Position numbers and translations under genes: made by a program | Shown: piece by piece, positions 1 through 19,991 of the stretch | Numbering within the stretch: the first letter of the stretch is position 1 | Layout of the letters: every line of letters begins with the position of its first letter | Source: an uncultured virus (IMG/VR IMGVR_UViG_3300032676_000720) | Lineage: Duplodnaviria; Heunggongvirae; Uroviricota; Caudoviricetes | Reading direction: 5' to 3' (one strand) | Length of the DNA stretch: 20,000 bases | Virus record (IMG/VR): IMGVR_UViG_3300032676_000720 | The notes under the pieces: generated by a model | Database searches by the model: none | Told to the model about the DNA's origin: nothing | What the model saw: only the letters and a program-made list of their open reading frames with translations

Positions 1-1
1 A

Positions 2-214
2 TATGTTACGAGCTAAACACTCTACATCCTTGTCTGAAAGGAATGGTGTCGCAATTAAATTTACAGTACGCTCTACAAAATATGTAGCTTGGCCAACCAT
101 CTGTCCTGTAAATGTTGTATTGTCTGCTAAGACAACTACTTCTTGTTTTACTTCTGCTGCTTGTACTACAATACTGCTTACTACTAGTAATAACGATAAT
201 AAGATATTCTTCAT
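2..214 (-). CDS. SleB/Hydrolase_2-family cell wall hydrolase, N-terminal part (runs off the window edge)
   Basis: Not in ORF track. Manual translation MKNILLSLLLVVSSIVVQAAEVKQ...LSDKDVECLARNI: signal peptide, then the 'ECLARNI' start of the SleB catalytic motif; SD GAGGAG at 226-221. Confidence 0.75.
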   Translation of the reverse strand, partial: MKNILLSLLLVVSSIVVQAAEVKQEVVVLADNTTFTGQMVGQATYFVERTVNLIATPFLSDKDVECLARNI

Positions 215-476
215 TTCGTTCTCCTCACGGCACAACTGGGCCAGTTCAGCGGATGCTCAGGATGAGCGCATTGACAATGATGGAGAGTGTAGGTACGAGA
301 CCTCGGCCTTCTTTGGCATTTACTCTTTCGTATATTAAACAACTAATATACAATACCATATTGTCAACGAAAAGGATTTCCGAAGTCCTCTTTCGAATCG
401 GATTCAAACTGACATCCGGTGCGTGACTTACATTTATATTCCGGACAAGCCCGTTCGGTGTTCGCTACTATATATA
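215..476 (-). ncRNA. Putative large structured 5' leader RNA (cis-regulatory) of the cell wall hydrolase gene
   Basis: Long intergenic region, about 50% GC in parts, with many nested complementary segments: CGTTGACAATATGG 369-356 / CCATCATTGTCAATG 283-269; TCACGCAC 426-419 / GTGCCGTGA 233-225; GTATATTA/TAATATAC. Confidence 0.6.
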
Positions 477-483
477 CTTACTA

Positions 484-512
484 AGTTTACTACAGAACAA
501 TAAAAAAAGCAA
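484..512 (-). promoter_or_regulatory. sigma70-like promoter TTGCTT-17-TAAACT
   Basis: -35 at 512-507, -10 at 489-484, 17-bp spacer; followed by TAAGTA (480-475). Confidence 0.5.
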
Positions 513-541
513 TCATTTCGGTACCTTTTTGCCGTTAACTA

Positions 542-1159
542 CTAATATAATGGCTCCGGTGGAGGCATAGCTTTAAGTTTAGCCCACATCTCACCTTGTT
601 CCTTTAATTTGGCTTCTAATGCGCGATACTTGTCGCCTAATTCTTTAAGTTCATCCCATTCCTTTTCCAATTCTGGATTTGGAACTAAGACATTTAATCT
701 TTCTTCAAGTTTTTGTATGACATCAGTTAAACTACGACCATTAATTTTTATGTCAGCGTTATCGCCTTCGAGATTTAATTGACCAGTAGCATTGGTGTAT
801 AAAGAAGTATTAGTGGCGTTAGTTGCGCCAAAATTATATCCAGTTCCTGCTCCGGCAGAGATAGTATATGGGCCAGTGTTAGCTCCAGTTAAACTAGGAG
901 AGATTGTGTATCCGCCGCCAATAACAGTATTACTATACAACGATCCAGATGCTGCTCCTGGATTAAGTGTAATGGTATCAGTTGTCGCACCGTTATTATA
1001 AGTTAAATCAAACGGATTATATGAACTTGAATATTCATAACCTGCTATTGTAACAGTATCTTCTGTTTCTGTTACCGGAGTCGGGTCATTAATTTTTTTA
1101 AGTGCGTTACGAATTTCATCCAATTGTTCTTGAGCCAATTGCTCTTGCGTAAGGTCCAT
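542..1159 (-). CDS. Hypothetical phage protein (T/G/N-rich middle, C-terminal coiled coil)
   Basis: 205-aa ORF with AAGGA SD; start lies inside the preceding AbrB-like ORF. Confidence 0.8.
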   Translation of the reverse strand: MDLTQEQLAQEQLDEIRNALKKINDPTPVTETEDTVTIAGYEYSSSYNPFDLTYNNGATTDTITLNPGAASGSLYSNTVIGGGYTISPSLTGANTGPYTISAGAGTGYNFGATNATNTSLYTNATGQLNLEGDNADIKINGRSLTDVIQKLEERLNVLVPNPELEKEWDELKELGDKYRALEAKLKEQGEMWAKLKAMPPPEPLY

Positions 1160-1291: not shown

Positions 1292-1480
1292 TTACTTAAC
1301 AGACAATGCTTCTTTTTCTGCTGTAATTTCTTTACGACGCTCTTTGATGCCCTTAGACATTTCTTGTAATGCTTTACGTGCCCTGGCGGCAGATGCTTTA
1401 ACGCCTTTAGTTGTAAACTTAGTGTTTTCTTCGATATATGTATTATAAGCCGCTACAATAGCGTCATGTTGTTGTGACAT
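1292..1480 (-). CDS. Histone H1-like (Hc1-type) nucleoid protein
   Basis: 62 aa, basic; KGVKASAARARKALQEMSK-KERRKEI resembles the Hc1-family motif; SD AAGGA. Confidence 0.7.
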   Translation of the reverse strand: MSQQHDAIVAAYNTYIEENTKFTTKGVKASAARARKALQEMSKGIKERRKEITAEKEALSVK

Positions 1481-2280: not shown

Positions 2281-2523
2281 TTAGAAATAAACGTGTCGTT
2301 TGGCATAACAGTCCCAAACTAATATATTGTCCCAACTATGTGTCCAAGTTACTATAAACAGACTAAGGGTATTGTGGTCAAAGATATGTAATTTATTGTC
2401 ATCTACTCTTGCTTGAATTGAACGGCTAGTAGTTGTCCATTTTTGTAAACGGTTTCGTGCTTCTGGATCTCTCATTATTACGGTATACAGAGAGTCACCG
2501 TTTTTAAAAACTGGTAAGGTCAT
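2281..2523 (-). CDS. Hypothetical protein
   Basis: 80-aa ORF, ATGA overlap with the upstream gene. Confidence 0.75.
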   Translation of the reverse strand: MTLPVFKNGDSLYTVIMRDPEARNRLQKWTTTSRSIQARVDDNKLHIFDHNTLSLFIVTWTHSWDNILVWDCYAKRHVYF

Positions 2524-3269
2524 TTACGTTCTATATCTTCTTCTTGACAGTCTTCACCATATTGTATTTCAACTATGCGACACGGATTGTCTGACATATT
2601 AATTAATTGGTGCCAAGTATTTACTGGAATGTCAATTGTTTCGTGTGTGCTGAGTTTTACAATATTGTCATCACCTGCTACACGACCTTCGCCTTCTTCT
2701 ACTACCCAATACTCGCTACGCTTAAAATGTCGTTGCATACTTAAACTCTTACCTGGATTGACTGTAAGCTCTTTAACCTTCATGCCCGGAGCTTCGTGTA
2801 GTACACGATAATGACCCCATTGGCGTTCTGTTTTAGGCGCTTTCCATTCTTGTAGTATCCAAGATGATGAATTCATTTTGTTTTCGCCACCAACTCCAAA
2901 TACAAATTCTAGATTGCTATCGACTAAATCCATTTCAGGAATGTTGGTACTAGTTCTATCGCCACCGTTAGCAAATATAATCTTATCATTTGGATAACTT
3001 TGTCGGGCCATTGTGATAGCGTGTTTAGCTGAGTTATCTGAATCATTGAAGTCAATAACATAATCAACTCCTACAATGTTTTGTACGATAGCCGAGCGTT
3101 CCGAATAAGGCATAAATGCTCGTCCTTTTTTACGCATCAGCCAAGCATCTGAATTAACACCAACTACTAATATATCTCCCAGCTTTTTTGCGGCTTGAAG
3201 GTAAGCAATATGTCCAGAGTGTAGCGGATCAAAGCCGCCAGTTACTACAACAATTTTTAAAGGTTTCAT
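2520..3269 (-). CDS. Cytidylyltransferase-like (RfaE/TagD-type) domain fused to a mannose-6-phosphate isomerase type II-like cupin
   Basis: GGFDPLHSGH (HIGH-type motif), VGVNSD, FANGGDR; C-terminal RQWGHY...LSMQRH..RSEYW...WHQL.N...IVEIQYG..C.EEDIER. Confidence 0.9.
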   Translation of the reverse strand: MKPLKIVVVTGGFDPLHSGHIAYLQAAKKLGDILVVGVNSDAWLMRKKGRAFMPYSERSAIVQNIVGVDYVIDFNDSDNSAKHAITMARQSYPNDKIIFANGGDRTSTNIPEMDLVDSNLEFVFGVGGENKMNSSSWILQEWKAPKTERQWGHYRVLHEAPGMKVKELTVNPGKSLSMQRHFKRSEYWVVEEGEGRVAGDDNIVKLSTHETIDIPVNTWHQLINMSDNPCRIVEIQYGEDCQEEDIERK

Positions 3270-6149: not shown

Positions 6150-6598
6150 TATAGTGTCTCCAATTTAGTTTGATATGCTTCGGCATGGCGTTTTTCAACT
6201 CCAGCCAATGCTTTAAAACGCTTTTCAGCTTTAGCCAATACTTCAGCAAATTGTTCAGCGTGTTCTTTTGATTCTTCGATTTGGTGCTGTGCTTCGATGG
6301 CAGCCTGTTGATTACCTTCCTCAACTGCTTCTTTAAGCATTGTTGGGTACATATAGGTAAACTCTTCGGTCTCGCCGTCGATAGCCTTTTGTAAACATTC
6401 TTTGGTAGTTGGCTTACCGATAAGCAATTCTAAATGGCCCCATGCGTGTAGCAATTCTTGGTCTGCCGTGTGTTCGAAATGCTTTGCTACTTCCTCATAG
6501 CCTTCGGCACGAGCAATCTTAGCAAAATAACGATACTTGATATGAGCTTGTGACTCGCCGGCCAATGCCGACTCAAGATTTTTAATAGTAATACTCAT
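6149..6598 (-). CDS. rbr: Rubrerythrin (ferritin-like di-iron domain only)
   Basis: NLESALAGESQAHIKYRYFAKIARAEG, QELLHA, GETEE...MYP, ESKEHA; start moved to ATG 6598 after AGGAG. Confidence 0.9.
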   Translation of the reverse strand: MSITIKNLESALAGESQAHIKYRYFAKIARAEGYEEVAKHFEHTADQELLHAWGHLELLIGKPTTKECLQKAIDGETEEFTYMYPTMLKEAVEEGNQQAAIEAQHQIEESKEHAEQFAEVLAKAEKRFKALAGVEKRHAEAYQTKLETL

Positions 6599-6623
6599 TG
6601 ACATCTCCTTATAGTAAAGTAAT

Positions 6624-6652
6624 ATTGTAATAGTATTTACTAATAAGATCAA
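6624..6652 (-). promoter_or_regulatory. sigma70-like promoter TTGATC-17-TACAAT (TAAATA in spacer)
   Basis: -35 6652-6647, -10 6629-6624. Confidence 0.55.
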
Positions 6653-14151: not shown

Positions 14152-16248
14152 ATGTCCCAAATTATTATTAACACCGGAAATATTGCCAATGATGGCACTG
14201 GTGACCCGCTACGTACCGCATTTAATGATGTAAATAACAATTTTACACAGGTTTTTAGTGCCGGCCCGGTAGGTAGTAACATAGCAATCGCTAACAATAC
14301 TATCCAAACTACCAATACAAATGGTAATTTAATCCTTGCTACAAATGGTGTAGGAGTTGTTGTTCCGGCGGCTAATTTTGTTCCAGATAGACCAAACACT
14401 CGTTCTATTGGTACTTCAGCAGACCGTTTTTCTACAGTTTACGCCCAATATCTTAATGCCAATTCAGGTACATTTAGTGGTAACATTTATGCTGGAAATA
14501 TGCATTTTACTGGCAATGTTGTTACAGTTAACTACTCTACAGCAAATATTGGAAACCTTAATCTTACATTAGCGGCCAACGCTTCTAATGCCGCATTAGC
14601 TAATGGCGCTGGTATTATAGTTGCTAATGCCAATGCTAACTTAATTTATAATTACAGTTCTAATTCTTGGGATAGCTCAATTGCTATTACAGCCCCAACC
14701 TTTATTGGCGATGGCGCAAATTTAACCAATGTTGTTGCTAATGTTAATGCTATTAATTTATTAGGCAACACATTAAGTTCATCTGTTGTATATTCAAATT
14801 TAACTAGTTTTGGAAGTGTAACTAGTTTATCAGCTATAGGTGATATATCAACTACAGGTAATGTTTATGCTAACGCAATCGTTGGCAATACTATCTTTGG
14901 TGCTCTTAATGGCGACGGTAGTAACATTACTAATATTACGGCTAATGCTATTGTAGGTAATGTTCCATTTGCTCTTAATGCTAACTCAGCTTATACAGCT
15001 AACTTAGCAGCACTAGCCACACAAGCTATCAATGCCGACACAGCATTGTTTGCCATTAATGCTAACTTAGCAGCATTTTCTAATGTAGCAACTTCAGCAC
15101 AAACAGCTAACAGTTCTCATTACTCTATTCAATCAGACAATGCTAACTCTGCTGTTGTAGCAGGTATGGCTTATGAATTATCTCCTAGTGCTAATGTGTC
15201 CTTAACTGGAAACATTCAAGTTGGAGGCATTTTAACTAACGGTTATTACTATGCTAACGGTACACCATTTACTGGTGCTACTAGTAATGTTTCTAATTTA
15301 GTTAATGGCAATGCTATTTTTAGTTTAACATCAGATGGCGTGTTAAATCTTCCAGTAGGGCATAGTTATTCATACAATGCTACCCTTACTGGCTATGGCA
15401 GCAACACAGCCCAAATACATTTTAATTTAGTTTGCGATCAATCAGGCACACAAACTGAATGGCAAGCAGGAATTACCAATCCAGGTAACGGATATTCTGT
15501 AGGCCAAACATTTACATACGATTCTACATTCATAGGAATACCTAACGCATCTGTTAGTATCGAAGTCGCAAGTGTAAACGGATCTGGCGGAGTTACTAAT
15601 TTAGCATTTACACAACCTCCATTATATCCACCTAGCTTTTATCAATCAAATTCATTTATAGCGTTAGAAGCTAATACACAGCGTTGGACTTTTGGATTAA
15701 ATGGCAACTTAACATTGCCGGCCACTATAACTGGCTTGGCTACTGCTGTCACACTTAACGCTGGCCTCACAGTAGGCTACTCCACAGCGGCCAACGTGCC
15801 AACCATTGCTGACACAGGTACAGGCACAGGCCTAACTGTTGACATCATAGCCGATAGTGGCAACGCTGGTTCAATTACTAGTGTCACCCTTAATCAGCGT
15901 GGCCAAGGCTATGCGCCGGGTGATCAGTTAACTATTAATCAGCCCAGCAGTACTGGCAACGGTGAGTTAACTGTTGTGGCAGTCGAGACTGTCAATCCTA
16001 GCATTAACTATGCTAACGGTCAACCATATGGTGGTAGTGGTAACTTTACAGGTAATATTAATGCTGTTAATGTTACAGCTACCGGTAATGTTAGTGCTGG
16101 CAATTTATATATTGGTAACACACTTTTTACAAGAACACTTTTAGTAGGAACATGGACTGCCCCAGTTACTGTGCCGCTAGCAAGTAATAATAGTTTTAAT
16201 GTTTTAACTGCTAATGGCAGTTCTAACATCGTGGTATATACAACTTAA
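14152..16248 (+). CDS. Tail fibre/baseplate wedge-type structural protein
   Basis: N-terminal IINTGNIANDGTGDPLRTAF (T4 gp9/gp10-like); N/G/T/A-rich beta repeats. Confidence 0.75.
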   Translation: MSQIIINTGNIANDGTGDPLRTAFNDVNNNFTQVFSAGPVGSNIAIANNTIQTTNTNGNLILATNGVGVVVPAANFVPDRPNTRSIGTSADRFSTVYAQYLNANSGTFSGNIYAGNMHFTGNVVTVNYSTANIGNLNLTLAANASNAALANGAGIIVANANANLIYNYSSNSWDSSIAITAPTFIGDGANLTNVVANVNAINLLGNTLSSSVVYSNLTSFGSVTSLSAIGDISTTGNVYANAIVGNTIFGALNGDGSNITNITANAIVGNVPFALNANSAYTANLAALATQAINADTALFAINANLAAFSNVATSAQTANSSHYSIQSDNANSAVVAGMAYELSPSANVSLTGNIQVGGILTNGYYYANGTPFTGATSNVSNLVNGNAIFSLTSDGVLNLPVGHSYSYNATLTGYGSNTAQIHFNLVCDQSGTQTEWQAGITNPGNGYSVGQTFTYDSTFIGIPNASVSIEVASVNGSGGVTNLAFTQPPLYPPSFYQSNSFIALEANTQRWTFGLNGNLTLPATITGLATAVTLNAGLTVGYSTAANVPTIADTGTGTGLTVDIIADSGNAGSITSVTLNQRGQGYAPGDQLTINQPSSTGNGELTVVAVETVNPSINYANGQPYGGSGNFTGNINAVNVTATGNVSAGNLYIGNTLFTRTLLVGTWTAPVTVPLASNNSFNVLTANGSSNIVVYTT

Positions 16249-16268: not shown

Positions 16269-19200
16269 ATGGCAAACCAAATCCCATTAATCGTAAATGC
16301 TGGCGCAGGTCAGATACAACAATTAGCAACAGAGGATAATCTTTCTGTTACTGCTAATGTTGTTACAGGTAATATTTTAGCAGGTGGCTACTTTTACGCA
16401 AACGGACAACCGTTTAGTGGCGGCGGCAATGCTACTCCAGGCGGCAGCAACACACAAGTTCAGTTTAATCTTGATGGCGCATTTGCTGGCGACTCTAGCT
16501 TTACATATGATAGTGCTAATGCCGCTAATGGCTTAATACTACAATCATCATTTGTAGCCAACCCAGGCGCTAGTATTTTAGAAGTACACGGGTTAAGCGC
16601 ATATATGGGCGAAGTAGCCGGAGGTGGTATTGAGGTTAATGCTGCTACTCACACAACTACTATTAGTACTCCTGCTACAAATATTACCGGCGATGTATCT
16701 GCCGCAGGCAATATTACTGGCAATTTTATTATTGGAGATGGTTCTCAGTTAACTAATCTTCCGTCAAGTACTCCTACAAATATTCAATATGGCACAACTA
16801 CAGTGGCTATTGACGCTCCAAGTGGTAATGTTTATATTCAAGTAGATGACAATCCAATTTGGACATTTAATTCTGATGCCACACTTACTGCTCCTGGCAC
16901 AATAATTGCTCAAGAATTAAATGCTGGCGACTACACATATGGAACTTCTGGCGATGCGTTTTTCCATTCTAATATTAGTGGAACTAGTATAGGCGTTACT
17001 GGTGGTGGTGGCATTGCCGTTGATGGTGGCGGCATCAGTATTGGTGGCACAGGCGGAGCAAACATTTTTGGTATTGCTAATGCTAACATTATTATTGGTG
17101 GTCCTTATACACAATCCGTTAATGTATTAACTCCTATCAATGCTACTAATAGTATCACAGCTACAAATTTTTATGGTACTGATATTTCAGCTTCGGGTAA
17201 TATTACTAGTGATGGCAAAGTTATTACAGTAGCTAGCAACTTATCAGATGGCGCAGTATCTGGTGCTGGATTAATTGCTGGAGCAAATACTGCTACTATT
17301 CTTTATGACAATAGCGTGTTTGGTTGGACAGTAAATCAAGGTTGGCACCCAGCGGCTAATGCAACATATAACTTAGGTCGTCCAACTCGTTATTGGAATA
17401 ATCTTTATTCAGTTAATGTTACAGCTGATAACATGGATATTGTCGACGGGCTTGCTAGTAATTCTATTACTTCTGGATCATTCTTATTAGCTAATGCGGG
17501 CAATTCAACTACTAGTATAATTCAACAAAATCAAAATCCTCCATTAGGTTCAGAGGCATTTGGTATTGAGTTATTAACCACTGCTAATGATAACCCTGGT
17601 GTTTACAGTAGTGTTTCTGCTGGGCCAGACTATGTTTCATTACAAAGTAGTAATGCTGGTAATGCTAATGTAACATTACAAGGTGGATATGGTATTACAC
17701 TTAATACAAGTAATGCTACAGGCGGTGGACAACAAACTTGGACCTTTACAGAAGGCGGTCAATTCCTTGCTGCCGGAGATGTTAGCACAACAGGTAATGT
17801 ATTAGCTCAAGGAGTAGTTTCTGCTACTGGCAATATTATTACTGACGGATACTTTGTTGGTAACTTTGCTGGTAACATTACAGGTAATATTGTTGTTCCT
17901 GGTTCAAATACACAAGTATTGTTTAACACAAACGGTAATGTTGATGCTGTTGGTGGATTAACTTATAACAAAGATTCAAACACATTAACAATTTTAGGTG
18001 TTGTAAGTGCTCAAGGCGATGTATTTGGAGCTACTATTAATGGCAATGGTGCTAACTTAACTAGCTTGTATAGTACTGTTGATGTCATTGCTCTTGGTAG
18101 AAATGCTGGCGGCGGCTCTTATGCTAATTCCATATCAATTGGTGTTGGTTCAGGTGACCAAGGAGCAAACTCAGTAGCAGTTGGTCCTTACAGTGGCGCT
18201 AATGCTCAAGGCAGTTATAGTGTAGCAATTGGTCGTAGCGCAGCTTATTCAGCTCAAGGAAATATTGCTATTGCTATTGGTCGCGGCGCTGGATGGGGCA
18301 ACCAAAGTGACGAAGCGATTTCGATTGGTTATGGAGCAGGTAATTCAACACAAGGGTACCAAGCTATTTCCATTGGTTCAAATGCGGGTGCTAATTCACA
18401 AACTGATAACGCTATATCAATTGGTTCAGCGGCTGGTTTTGAAACACAAGGCGAATTTTCAATTGGTATTGGACATATAGCAGGCGGATATTTCCAAGGA
18501 CCACAAGCTATTGCGATTGGTTTATCAGCAGGTAATACTACGCAAGGCGCAAATGCTATAGCGTTAGGATGGATAGCTGGTAATATTAACCAAGGCAGTG
18601 ATGGCATTGCTATTGGTACTAACGCTGGTAACAGTAATCAAGGCGTTGGAGCTGTTGCTATCGGCCGCTGGGCAGGCAATGGTAATCAAGGTATTAACTC
18701 TGTAGCACTTGGCCGCAATGCTGGTAATGTTAGTCAAGGTATAGAAGCTGTAGCTGTTGGTCATAGTGCTGGTAATACTACACAAGGTAATGCGGCAGTA
18801 GCCGTTGGTTGGCAAGCAGGTTATATCAGTCAAGCTGATTATTCTGTAGCGATTGGCGCTTATGCTGGTAACCTTAACATGGGTGCTAACGCTGTAGCCA
18901 TTGGATCCTTTGCTGGATATCCAAATTCAGCTAATAACTCTATTGCTATTAACGGCAATCCAACTCCATTAGATGCGCCTAACGCAGGCTTTTATGTAGC
19001 TCCAGTTCGCAATGACACAGGTAATGTAACTAATGTCGTTTATTACAATACTTTAACTAATGAAGTTACATATGGTCCAACAACCATTGGTAGCTCAATT
19101 GTTAATGGTAATAGTAATGTTTCTATTAGTACTGCTGGTGGCAACATCGACCTCAATGTAAATGGAAATCCATTTGGTAGTTTAGGATTTGGTGTTGCTT

Positions 19201-19991
19201 TAGGATACAATGCTGGCGGATCAGGAAATACAGCATTCCAAGAATCAGGCATTGCTATTGGTACGAGTGCTGGTAATACTAGCCAAGGCATACATAGTAT
19301 TGCTATTGGTTGGAATACTGGTGAATATCTACAAGGTAATAGTGCCGTAGCTATTGGAGAAAACGCTGGTTACGCACAACAGGGCGATTTTGCTATTGCC
19401 ATTGGGGCAGTAGCTGGTCGTGCGTTACAAGGTGCTAATGCTATTGCTTTCGGTACTCGAGCTGGATTAGAAGGCCAAGGAGCTTATGCTATTGCTATTG
19501 GTGCCGAGGCTGCTTCAAATAATCAACCTGTTAATAGTATTGCTATCGTAGCATCTGGTGTTGACCCAGTGCCAACTAACTCAGGATTGTATATTGATCC
19601 AGTTCGCAATGACACAGGCAATGTAACTAACGCTGTTTACTATAATACAACAACTAAAGAAGTTACATATGGCCCAGCGGGTGGCGGATCTAGTGTGGCC
19701 GAAGCGGCATTTACTATCCAATCATCTGACTTTAATGCGGTAGTTGGCAATAGATATGGAGTAGACACTACTAGTAATCCAGTAACAGCCACATTAACTG
19801 CGTTTCCTATAACAGGAACTGCTGTGTTCTTTGCTGATGCAGGCGGAGCATTTGCCACAAATAATTTAACAATTAACCCAGTAGGGCGAACCATTATGGG
19901 TTCAAGTGGCAACTATGTTGTTAATACTAACAATAATAGTTTTGGCTTGTTCTGGAATGGAACAACATGGCGCACATATAGTAATGTTTAA
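16269..19991 (+). CDS. Long tail fibre/adhesin with YadA-head-like 16-aa repeats
   Basis: 1240 aa; GSNTQVQFN motifs; QGxxAIAIGxxAG repeats; SD AGGA. Confidence 0.8.
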   Translation: MANQIPLIVNAGAGQIQQLATEDNLSVTANVVTGNILAGGYFYANGQPFSGGGNATPGGSNTQVQFNLDGAFAGDSSFTYDSANAANGLILQSSFVANPGASILEVHGLSAYMGEVAGGGIEVNAATHTTTISTPATNITGDVSAAGNITGNFIIGDGSQLTNLPSSTPTNIQYGTTTVAIDAPSGNVYIQVDDNPIWTFNSDATLTAPGTIIAQELNAGDYTYGTSGDAFFHSNISGTSIGVTGGGGIAVDGGGISIGGTGGANIFGIANANIIIGGPYTQSVNVLTPINATNSITATNFYGTDISASGNITSDGKVITVASNLSDGAVSGAGLIAGANTATILYDNSVFGWTVNQGWHPAANATYNLGRPTRYWNNLYSVNVTADNMDIVDGLASNSITSGSFLLANAGNSTTSIIQQNQNPPLGSEAFGIELLTTANDNPGVYSSVSAGPDYVSLQSSNAGNANVTLQGGYGITLNTSNATGGGQQTWTFTEGGQFLAAGDVSTTGNVLAQGVVSATGNIITDGYFVGNFAGNITGNIVVPGSNTQVLFNTNGNVDAVGGLTYNKDSNTLTILGVVSAQGDVFGATINGNGANLTSLYSTVDVIALGRNAGGGSYANSISIGVGSGDQGANSVAVGPYSGANAQGSYSVAIGRSAAYSAQGNIAIAIGRGAGWGNQSDEAISIGYGAGNSTQGYQAISIGSNAGANSQTDNAISIGSAAGFETQGEFSIGIGHIAGGYFQGPQAIAIGLSAGNTTQGANAIALGWIAGNINQGSDGIAIGTNAGNSNQGVGAVAIGRWAGNGNQGINSVALGRNAGNVSQGIEAVAVGHSAGNTTQGNAAVAVGWQAGYISQADYSVAIGAYAGNLNMGANAVAIGSFAGYPNSANNSIAINGNPTPLDAPNAGFYVAPVRNDTGNVTNVVYYNTLTNEVTYGPTTIGSSIVNGNSNVSISTAGGNIDLNVNGNPFGSLGFGVALGYNAGGSGNTAFQESGIAIGTSAGNTSQGIHSIAIGWNTGEYLQGNSAVAIGENAGYAQQGDFAIAIGAVAGRALQGANAIAFGTRAGLEGQGAYAIAIGAEAASNNQPVNSIAIVASGVDPVPTNSGLYIDPVRNDTGNVTNAVYYNTTTKEVTYGPAGGGSSVAEAAFTIQSSDFNAVVGNRYGVDTTSNPVTATLTAFPITGTAVFFADAGGAFATNNLTINPVGRTIMGSSGNYVVNTNNNSFGLFWNGTTWRTYSNV
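18159..18926 (+). repeat. 16 x 48-bp (16-aa) YadA-head-like repeats; second block of about 6 at 19239-19523
   Basis: QGANSVAVGPYSGANA ... MGANAVAIGSFAGYPN counted in the translation. Confidence 0.85.
19001..19676 (+). repeat. About 79-bp direct repeat (PVRNDTGNVTN.VYYNT.T.EVTYGP) at 19001-19079 and 19598-19676
   Basis: TCCAGTTCGCAATGACACAGG and GAAGTTACATATGG identical in both copies; 597-nt offset. Confidence 0.85.

Follow-up and report, generated by a model that had tools for sequence, protein, structure and literature searches.

The window (the whole 20,000-nucleotide stretch of DNA analyzed here) corresponds to bases 84514-104513 of a linear virus record of 158.5 kb and of lake-water type, and the stretch occurs in DNA runs from lake-water and freshwater metagenomes; among the runs that contain it, none is of RNA. 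The completeness of the record (45%, CheckV) points to a giant phage, as do related contigs of 317-349 kb. At the start of the window, on the minus strand, lies the gene for a hydrolase with a signal peptide, and a spacer of 327 nt separates its start codon (214) from the end of the next ORF upstream (542). The leader described here (545-215, minus strand, ~330 bases) lies directly 5' of the hydrolase gene. The coding features at the locus are the following:

1-214, minus strand: 5' part of the hydrolase gene, which extends past the window edge (223 aa in full; complete ORF taken from L001)
212-226, minus strand: Shine-Dalgarno sequence GAGGAG (226-221) and start codon ATG (214-212) of the hydrolase gene
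542-1159, minus strand: upstream ORF of 205 aa, with its stop codon TAG at 544-542

The product of the hydrolase gene belongs to Pfam family Hydrolase_2 (PF07486, SleB/CwlJ-type; score 71.3 bits, gathering cut-off 27, E = 1.1e-19) and matches PHROG endolysin families (phrog_938, E = 4.4e-17). Its translation in the window begins with an N-terminal segment resembling a signal peptide; across the four clades of relatives described below, the predicted export signal is a signal peptide in clade A, to which the window belongs, and in clades B-D it is a membrane anchor at the N-terminus. With export predicted, the action of the enzyme need not wait for a holin. For the upstream 205-aa ORF no Pfam or PHROG family was found; its C-terminal tail (...W.KLKAMPPP) and its placement right before the leader are kept in clades A and B, and another gene stands upstream of the leader in clades C and D.

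Several other genes of this phage are of interest in their own right. A phage-encoded IF-1 homologue of 72 aa (L001:33-248, minus strand; Pfam eIF-1a, E = 3.1e-20) lies two genes downstream of the hydrolase gene, on the phage genome (G000) ~1.3 kb past the window start, and thus close to a gene whose relatives frequently use a UUG start. A histone H1-like Hc1 protein of 62 aa, unusual for a phage, is encoded at 1295-1480 (minus strand; PF07432, E = 2.6e-10), and two auxiliary metabolic genes, both on the minus strand, encode a cytidylyltransferase fused to a mannose-6-phosphate isomerase/cupin domain (2523-3269) and a rubrerythrin (6152-6652). Two large ORFs on the plus strand (14152-16245, 698 aa; 16269-19988, 1240 aa) contain no Pfam family.

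A previous reading of the window from its sequence alone (the sequence-only reading) had proposed that a large multi-helix RNA of a new class precedes the hydrolase gene, with a closing stem that overlaps the ribosome binding site. All of the strands it named are found where it placed them, and most of them are paired in the minimum free energy fold of 215-430 (-61.5 kcal/mol). This fold is modestly better than those of dinucleotide shuffles, of which 3 of 200 equal it (z = -2.25); for the spacer as a whole (205-545), z is -1.51 and 9 of 100 shuffles fold as well. The window alone thus folds just weakly better than chance, and the proof of a structured RNA rests on its relatives.

The expectation that the RNA would fall outside known classes was borne out. 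Across the 20-kb window no match reached the gathering threshold of any Rfam 15 covariance model, in a search that included ydaO, c-di-GMP-I/II, lysine, glycine, ROOL, GOLLD, raiA, and the NLPC_P60 and lysM motifs; over positions 1-900 at E-values up to 10, none fell inside 215-476, and two sub-threshold chance matches lay at 470-570. A tRNA/tmRNA scan placed no gene in the leader region, blastn gave no match among INPHARED phage records, and a simple promoter and terminator scan of the spacer found nothing. The leader is present in a single copy in the genome of the window's phage.

Occurrence of the leader before SleB-type hydrolase genes

Relatives of the leader were collected with the protein and with the RNA. 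A search of IMG/VR with the hydrolase returned 50 loci, among which only L002-L007 share a long spacer like that of the window, and an alignment of six sequences with such spacers already contained compensatory changes. A pattern of 22 nt, taken where conservation is highest, then matched 46 IMG/VR loci, all of them real, and a looser gapped pattern matched 56, of which 44 were confirmed by nhmmer and 12 were chance matches in GC-rich coding DNA; the sets of 46 and 44 loci overlap. A third pattern was found at no fewer than 120 loci (at least) in metagenome contigs. In 185,579 species genomes the same pattern had one match (L154), on a contig of 2370 bases (CAITCX010000170.1) assigned to a Dehalococcoidia MAG; the contig holds both the leader and the hydrolase gene and is probably a phage fragment mis-binned into the MAG. 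From the pooled searches 116 distinct core sequences were assembled, and these form four clades, of which clade A is small and consists of the window with L078, L064, L180, L234, L242, L269, and L184.

The gene that follows the leader is constant. At all 46 viral loci an ORF of 182-235 aa starts 93-113 nt past the beginning of the pattern match, and its product carries the QFSW and E[PS]xEG hydrolase motifs in every case. Among the 121 genome and metagenome matches listed, 73 have the hydrolase motif, 39 are cut before the motif, and 9 end earlier still; in none of the 121 does another gene follow the leader, and the hydrolase is downstream at 73 of 73 readable metagenome loci among those listed. 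At every readable locus among the matches listed, therefore, the leader occurs only before Hydrolase_2/SleB-type genes.

The association does not hold in the other direction. When hydrolase relatives were fetched without the RNA pattern, the best 80 of at least 566 comprised 62 without the leader, 17 with strong matches to the covariance model, and one with a weak match. The hydrolase loci with 140-nt spacers (L008-L051) gave no nhmmer match, and their covariance-model matches were weak (at most 14.2 bits) and misplaced, so that the leader is absent from all 44. Since most relatives of the hydrolase are without it, the leader marks a sub-lineage of these phage hydrolases.

Conserved core, pseudoknots and optional elements

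A covariance model (R1; 193 positions, 36 pairs) built from an alignment of 107 sequences was used to align 100 distinct members, in which 40 pairs in seven helices were counted over a core of 190 nt. The R1 alignment is fitted to the model's nested helices, toward which the following counts therefore lean: 91.6% of cells are occupied by standard pairs as against 79.1% after shuffling, 0 of 500 shuffles reach the observed value, and 33-45% are paired when the partners are slid. Both sides have changed in a compensatory manner in 27 of the 40 core pairs, and cells with changes on both sides number 496 (166 in shuffles); the covariation in homologues by which the sequence-only reading was to be judged is thus present. 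The elements of the leader, in which the words called invariant formed part of the search patterns, are listed here in window coordinates from 5' to 3' of the RNA:

503-538, minus strand: conserved 5' segment of the leader, UUAACGGCAAAAAGG...GCUUUUUUU, directly past the stop codon of the upstream ORF (from alignments, all clades)
475-480, minus strand: UAAGUA box, invariant in every clade, 43-180 nt from H1
399-466, minus strand: 5' hairpins specific to clade A, including the local hairpin CGGAU 418-414/AUCCG 403-399 (RNAalifold, eight clade A sequences)
370-392, minus strand: hairpin H1, with stem 392-386/376-370 and loop CUUCGGAAA (385-377) containing the invariant UCGG.A
269-369, minus strand: long-range helix S (369-362/276-269), which closes the multi-branch core and extends to 356/283 in the window's clade
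328-353, minus strand: variable hairpin H2 (353-344/337-328), with changes on both sides in all eight modelled pairs
284-326, minus strand: three-way junction of AGAGU 326-322/ACUCU 288-284, GCC 317-315/GGC 308-306, and AGGU 303-300/ACCU 294-291
301-306, minus strand: CCGAGG, complement of the H1 loop sequence CUUCGG (385-380), a candidate loop-junction pseudoknot
255-267, minus strand: hairpin P (GCUCA 267-263/UGAGC 259-255), with changes on both sides in five of five pairs and 90.2% pairing
228-250, minus strand: H-type pseudoknot of stem A (250-247/238-235) and stem B (243-240/231-228), with strands in the order A5'-B5'-A3'-B3'

Much of the multi-helix interior that had been drawn from the window recurs in the family. 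The AGAGGA/TCCTTT hairpin, here H1, is conserved and covaries, with seven pairs that are 99.4% paired and four that bear compensatory changes. Of the 14-bp long-range stem, the inner 8 bp (369-362/276-269) form helix S throughout the family (95.1% paired; pair 32-176 is AU in 70 sequences, GC in 15, and GU in 15), and the extension to 356/283 belongs to the clade. The hairpin enclosed by that stem (H2) covaries along its whole modelled length, as does the GCTCA/TGAGC hairpin (P). The three-way junction, which contains the invariant CCGAGGUCU (306-298), shifts its register from clade to clade. Its GCC/GGC helix is swapped to GGC/GCC in other clades, with a middle pair that is GC in 65, CG in 5, and unpaired in 30 of the 100 sequences of the model-made alignment, and its AGAGT/ACTCT and AGGT/ACCT helices are kept at the level of the window's clade (eight sequences).

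The outer parts of the earlier drawing fared differently. Of AACTG/CAGTT only the CTG/CAG part is retained, as stem A of the pseudoknot; the central pair of this stem (201-214) is CG in 59 and GC in 26 sequences, and stem A is absent from the alignment model, so that its covariation is independent of the method of alignment. Stem B, which had been overlooked, has compensatory changes at all five pairs and ends 1 nt from the Shine-Dalgarno sequence in the window and 1-3 nt from it in all clades. The supposed closing stem P1 (TCACGCAC 426-419 with GTGCCGTGA 233-225) is missing from the nearest relatives (L078, L064, L180, and L234), and its 3' strand serves instead as the 3' strand of stem B. 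For stem P2 (CGGAT 418-414 with ATCCG 254-250) a local partner, ATCCG 403-399, gives the better explanation: the resulting hairpin grows longer with compensatory changes in L078, L180, L234, L242, and L269. The TTTGAAT/ATTCGAA hairpin shows no conservation. Also missed were ~70 further conserved bases upstream, to ~545, which include the UAAGUA box.

Two further elements are tentative. The H1 loop and CCGAGG can pair in 99.0% of 600 cells (17-78% in slid controls), but both words are part of the search patterns and no covariation between them was detected in the 100-member alignment; variants found without those patterns comprise one swap of G-U for U-G (L288) and two mismatches (L284 and L303). 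This loop-junction pairing would constitute a third pseudoknot. The UAUGG-like words of the window (321-317 and 359-355), together with CUAAG at the UAAGUA box (480-475), are reminiscent of the two strands of the 11-nt receptor of GAAA tetraloops; both copies of UAUGG and CUAAG are found family-wide, and the CC of the tetraloop receptor is unconserved.

The second pseudoknot lies outside the core. In most relatives the UAAGUA box and H1 are separated by an extra domain of ~100 nt. When 80 distinct sequences were aligned by MAFFT alone, without fitting to structure, the 21 pairs of this domain were 98.8% paired as against 89.6% after shuffling (0 of 500 shuffles reach this), and 11 of the 21 were compensatory. 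The domain includes an H-type pseudoknot of CGG with CCG, for which there are three compensatory sequences. A long-range version of P2 (CGGA with a distal UCCG), suggested by RNAalifold for clade B, was dropped in favor of this local pseudoknot on account of those three sequences and of minimal-leader variants that are without CGGA. The domain is optional: some members have ~43 nt in its place, and clade A, including the window, has other hairpins there (466-399).

The UAAGUA box was also considered as DNA. TAAGTA(T), the sole internal word that is conserved, was rejected as a general phage promoter, since the two strands of the 158.5-kb genome contain 17 and 25 copies, with 24 expected, and so show no excess of the word. 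As a side observation, one weak match to the model (21.8 bits; L354:466-637), lies directly 5' of a hydrolase relative. It retains helix S and H1 and has a loop-junction complement that is shifted but intact (CUCGGG/CCCGAG), and neither the 3' pseudoknot nor hairpin P is present; the match could represent a leader that has diverged or been reduced.

Start region and probable control of translation

Transcription of the leader appears to differ between clades. A near-consensus sigma-70-like promoter (TTGACA-17-TATAAT) precedes it in 74 of 127 unique 5' regions, which suggests transcription by the host polymerase, and a post-transcriptional restraint of a lysis enzyme would then be useful. No such promoter was found in the window or its clade, where the leader may therefore be read through from the upstream gene. 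No terminator lies between the leader and the hydrolase ORF.

The hydrolase start codons in the family are TTG in 50 members, ATG in 45, and GTG in 4, with one misread (of 100). In the conserved fold the Shine-Dalgarno sequence is unpaired and lies outside the pseudoknot, with stem B ending at column 227 and the Shine-Dalgarno sequence starting at 229-231. The core contains no conserved anti-Shine-Dalgarno, the best column being complementary in 16 of 100 sequences, which makes simple occlusion of the ribosome binding site unlikely; the idea that a closing stem over this site serves as the expression platform is not supported on the same ground, and P1 itself is specific to the window.

Complementarity to the start codon is of another kind. 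The start region (-6 to +12) finds its best complements in the junction of the 3' strand of H1 and the 5' strand of S, with a mean duplex energy of -5.5 kcal/mol, and in the 3' strand of S, with ~-5.0 kcal/mol, as compared with -2.6 to -3.3 kcal/mol for shuffled start regions. In several sublineages the start contexts (CAUUGAA, GUUGACAA, AUGACAA, and GACAAUG) resemble the 5' strand of S, and UUG starts stand mostly in the context CAUUGAA, a copy of that strand (CAUUGACAA). These resemblances are short and inherited within clade B, so that they may reflect few independent events. In the window the start region can form no more than ~5 bp with the 3' strand of S, and a different 7-bp match is present instead, between UUUCGUU (373-367) and AACGAAA (220-214).

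The leader is conserved, covarying, non-coding, and fused to the ribosome binding site, and it constitutes a real, abundant, and previously unclassified family, an orphan riboswitch candidate or structured mRNA leader. The reading preferred here, with a probability of roughly 0.6, is that 545-215 (minus strand) belongs to a new family of mRNA leaders, structured and with several pseudoknots, which act in cis as sensors and gate an exported endolysin-type hydrolase. The leader probably controls translation of the hydrolase: the folded core (H1, helix S closing the three-way junction, P, and the H-type pseudoknot) would act as the sensor, its folding state would set whether the 30S subunit loads, and a lytic enzyme that is Sec-exported and does not depend on a holin would thereby be restrained until the appropriate point in infection. 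The likeliest switch would have the 3' strand of S pair either with its 5' strand, leaving the core folded and the start free, or with the start codon, which would then be hidden; if an effector locked S and the pseudoknots in place, the start codon would become free. Judged from the short sequence matches, which are weak in the window, this competition for a strand of helix S is only a lead.

As to the effector, we lean toward a small molecule rather than a protein. The leader would then be a new class of riboswitch of giant freshwater phages, with two to three pseudoknots, in which a small molecule reports the state of the infected cell and times translation of the Sec-exported endolysin; this narrower proposal is a tentative one. 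A covarying, aptamer-like domain is present and keeps a constant 5' position before a coherent set of genes. What could serve as an expression platform includes no terminator, an anti-Shine-Dalgarno in at most 16 of 100 members, and a modest, lineage-dependent complementarity of the start to the strands of S. The earlier label of an unclassified regulatory RNA is accordingly kept for a conserved multi-helix leader tied to a phage peptidoglycan hydrolase, and its riboswitch part is put forward as a hypothesis.

Among the rival explanations, the most durable, though rather unlikely, is that the leader is a translational operator, at which a phage or host protein reads UCGG.A, CCGAGGUCU, and UAAGUA and represses or activates initiation; the protein would possibly be a late-infection factor or the product of a neighboring conserved gene. 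T4 gene 32 protein and RegA regulate their targets by operator binding of this kind. The long invariant single-stranded words beside covarying helices, the location of the pseudoknot just 5' of the initiation region, and the synteny with the upstream ORF in clades A and B (its product ending in ...W.KLKAMPPP) are consistent with an operator, but known protein operators need far less than a core of ~190 nt with at least seven helices, the upstream gene is not the same in clades C and D, and no RNA-binding domain was found among the neighbors examined.

Less probable still is a constitutive structural leader that senses nothing and either stabilizes the mRNA against 5' decay or provides a ribosome standby site or enhancer for a weak UUG start. 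Such a leader would account for a conserved fold that leaves the Shine-Dalgarno sequence free, for UUG starts in 50 of 100 members, and for the fact that no alternative conserved fold has been demonstrated. The invariance of junctions and loops across four clades nevertheless exceeds what a stabilizing structure needs, and specific regulation is suggested by the optional pseudoknotted domain and by an association with one gene family only.

It is very improbable that the leader functions apart from the hydrolase gene that it adjoins, be it as a trans-acting non-coding RNA or through some other activity. Its size and complexity are like those of large ornate phage-borne RNAs and it has a promoter of its own in 74 of 127 unique 5' regions, yet no terminator precedes the ORF, the distance from motif to start is confined to 93-113 nt in 46 of 46 loci, the genome of the window's phage has one copy of the RNA, and among the matches listed the RNA never stands apart from the hydrolase gene.

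A non-functional RNA, whose conservation would reflect a small protein gene, promoter DNA, or chance, would suit the modest fold of the window (z of -1.5 to -2.25) and the fact that 27 of 100 members have one sense frame open throughout the core, but it is almost certainly wrong. Compensatory changes affect 27 of the 40 pairs in the core and 11 of the 21 in the optional domain, with the observed values reached by 0 of 500 shuffles; in the frame that is open in the window, 76 of 100 members have a stop within 45 codons (median 19); and core lengths occupy all three residues modulo 3. The frame stops, the core lengths, and the compensatory changes together exclude a conserved small ORF, which was rejected.

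Comparison with known systems

The ydaO/kimA (c-di-AMP) riboswitch (RF00379) is a large pseudoknotted 5' leader that is frequent before genes for cell-wall hydrolases. The phage leader shares its size, its pseudoknotted character, and its place before a cell-wall hydrolase gene; it differs in its helices and conserved words, in giving no Rfam match within 215-476 at E-values up to 10, and in being carried on giant-phage contigs rather than on bacterial chromosomes. A link of c-di-AMP riboswitches with cell-wall peptidases is also indicated in the literature (PMC9960051).

The covarying H-type pseudoknot right at the initiation region of the leader is reminiscent of preQ1-II and SAM-II. Both are translational riboswitches with an H-type pseudoknot at the ribosome binding site, in which the Shine-Dalgarno sequence is part of the pseudoknot. 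In the phage leader, by contrast, the Shine-Dalgarno sequence stands 1-3 nt past the pseudoknot, and the RNA is several times larger and has more pseudoknots.

Post-transcriptional control through 5' leaders is familiar from phage T4, in the pseudoknot of the gene 32 leader, the RegA operators, and gene e (lysozyme), in which a hairpin covers the ribosome binding site on the early transcript and an internal late promoter is present. The leader resembles these controls in that a 5' structure is proposed here to restrain expression after transcription, that of a lysis enzyme included, and its pseudoknot has a parallel in gene 32. Unlike gene e, it has no conserved segment that pairs with the ribosome binding site and no sign of an internal late promoter, and its structure is far larger and more conserved than those of the T4 controls.

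The NLPC_P60 and lysM motifs of Rfam are short bacterial orphan leaders that precede peptidoglycan-acting enzymes. The phage leader is likewise a conserved structured leader before a peptidoglycan enzyme, and neither motif matched it in cmscan. By its size, the invariance of its junction, and its pseudoknots, it looks most like an orphan riboswitch, and with more than 100 distinct sequences in four clades and clear compensatory mutations it is a well-populated candidate of that type.

Phage lysis timing is usually ascribed to holins and late transcription. A large leader that is multiply knotted, invariant in sequence, and confined to a position in front of an exported endolysin would, in giant lake phages that are abundant and uncultured, add a checkpoint for lysis at the level of RNA, and a ligand, if one exists, would reveal what the infected cell signals at lysis.

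A catalogue of RNAs from IMG/VR published in 2023, as far as its accessible part goes, contains more than 10,000 candidate structured RNAs with models of at most 151 nt and gives them no function (PMC10690425). One of its entries, DNAVirus_9038 (99 nt; 38 sequences, of which 32 are from freshwater), is tabulated in one instance as lying upstream of a SleB/Hydrolase_2 gene, at most 25 bp away (PMC10690425), and, compared by table entries only, may be a fragment of this leader. The texts reached by a full-text literature search contained no description of the leader RNA, and DNAVirus_9038 is the only possible overlap among them.
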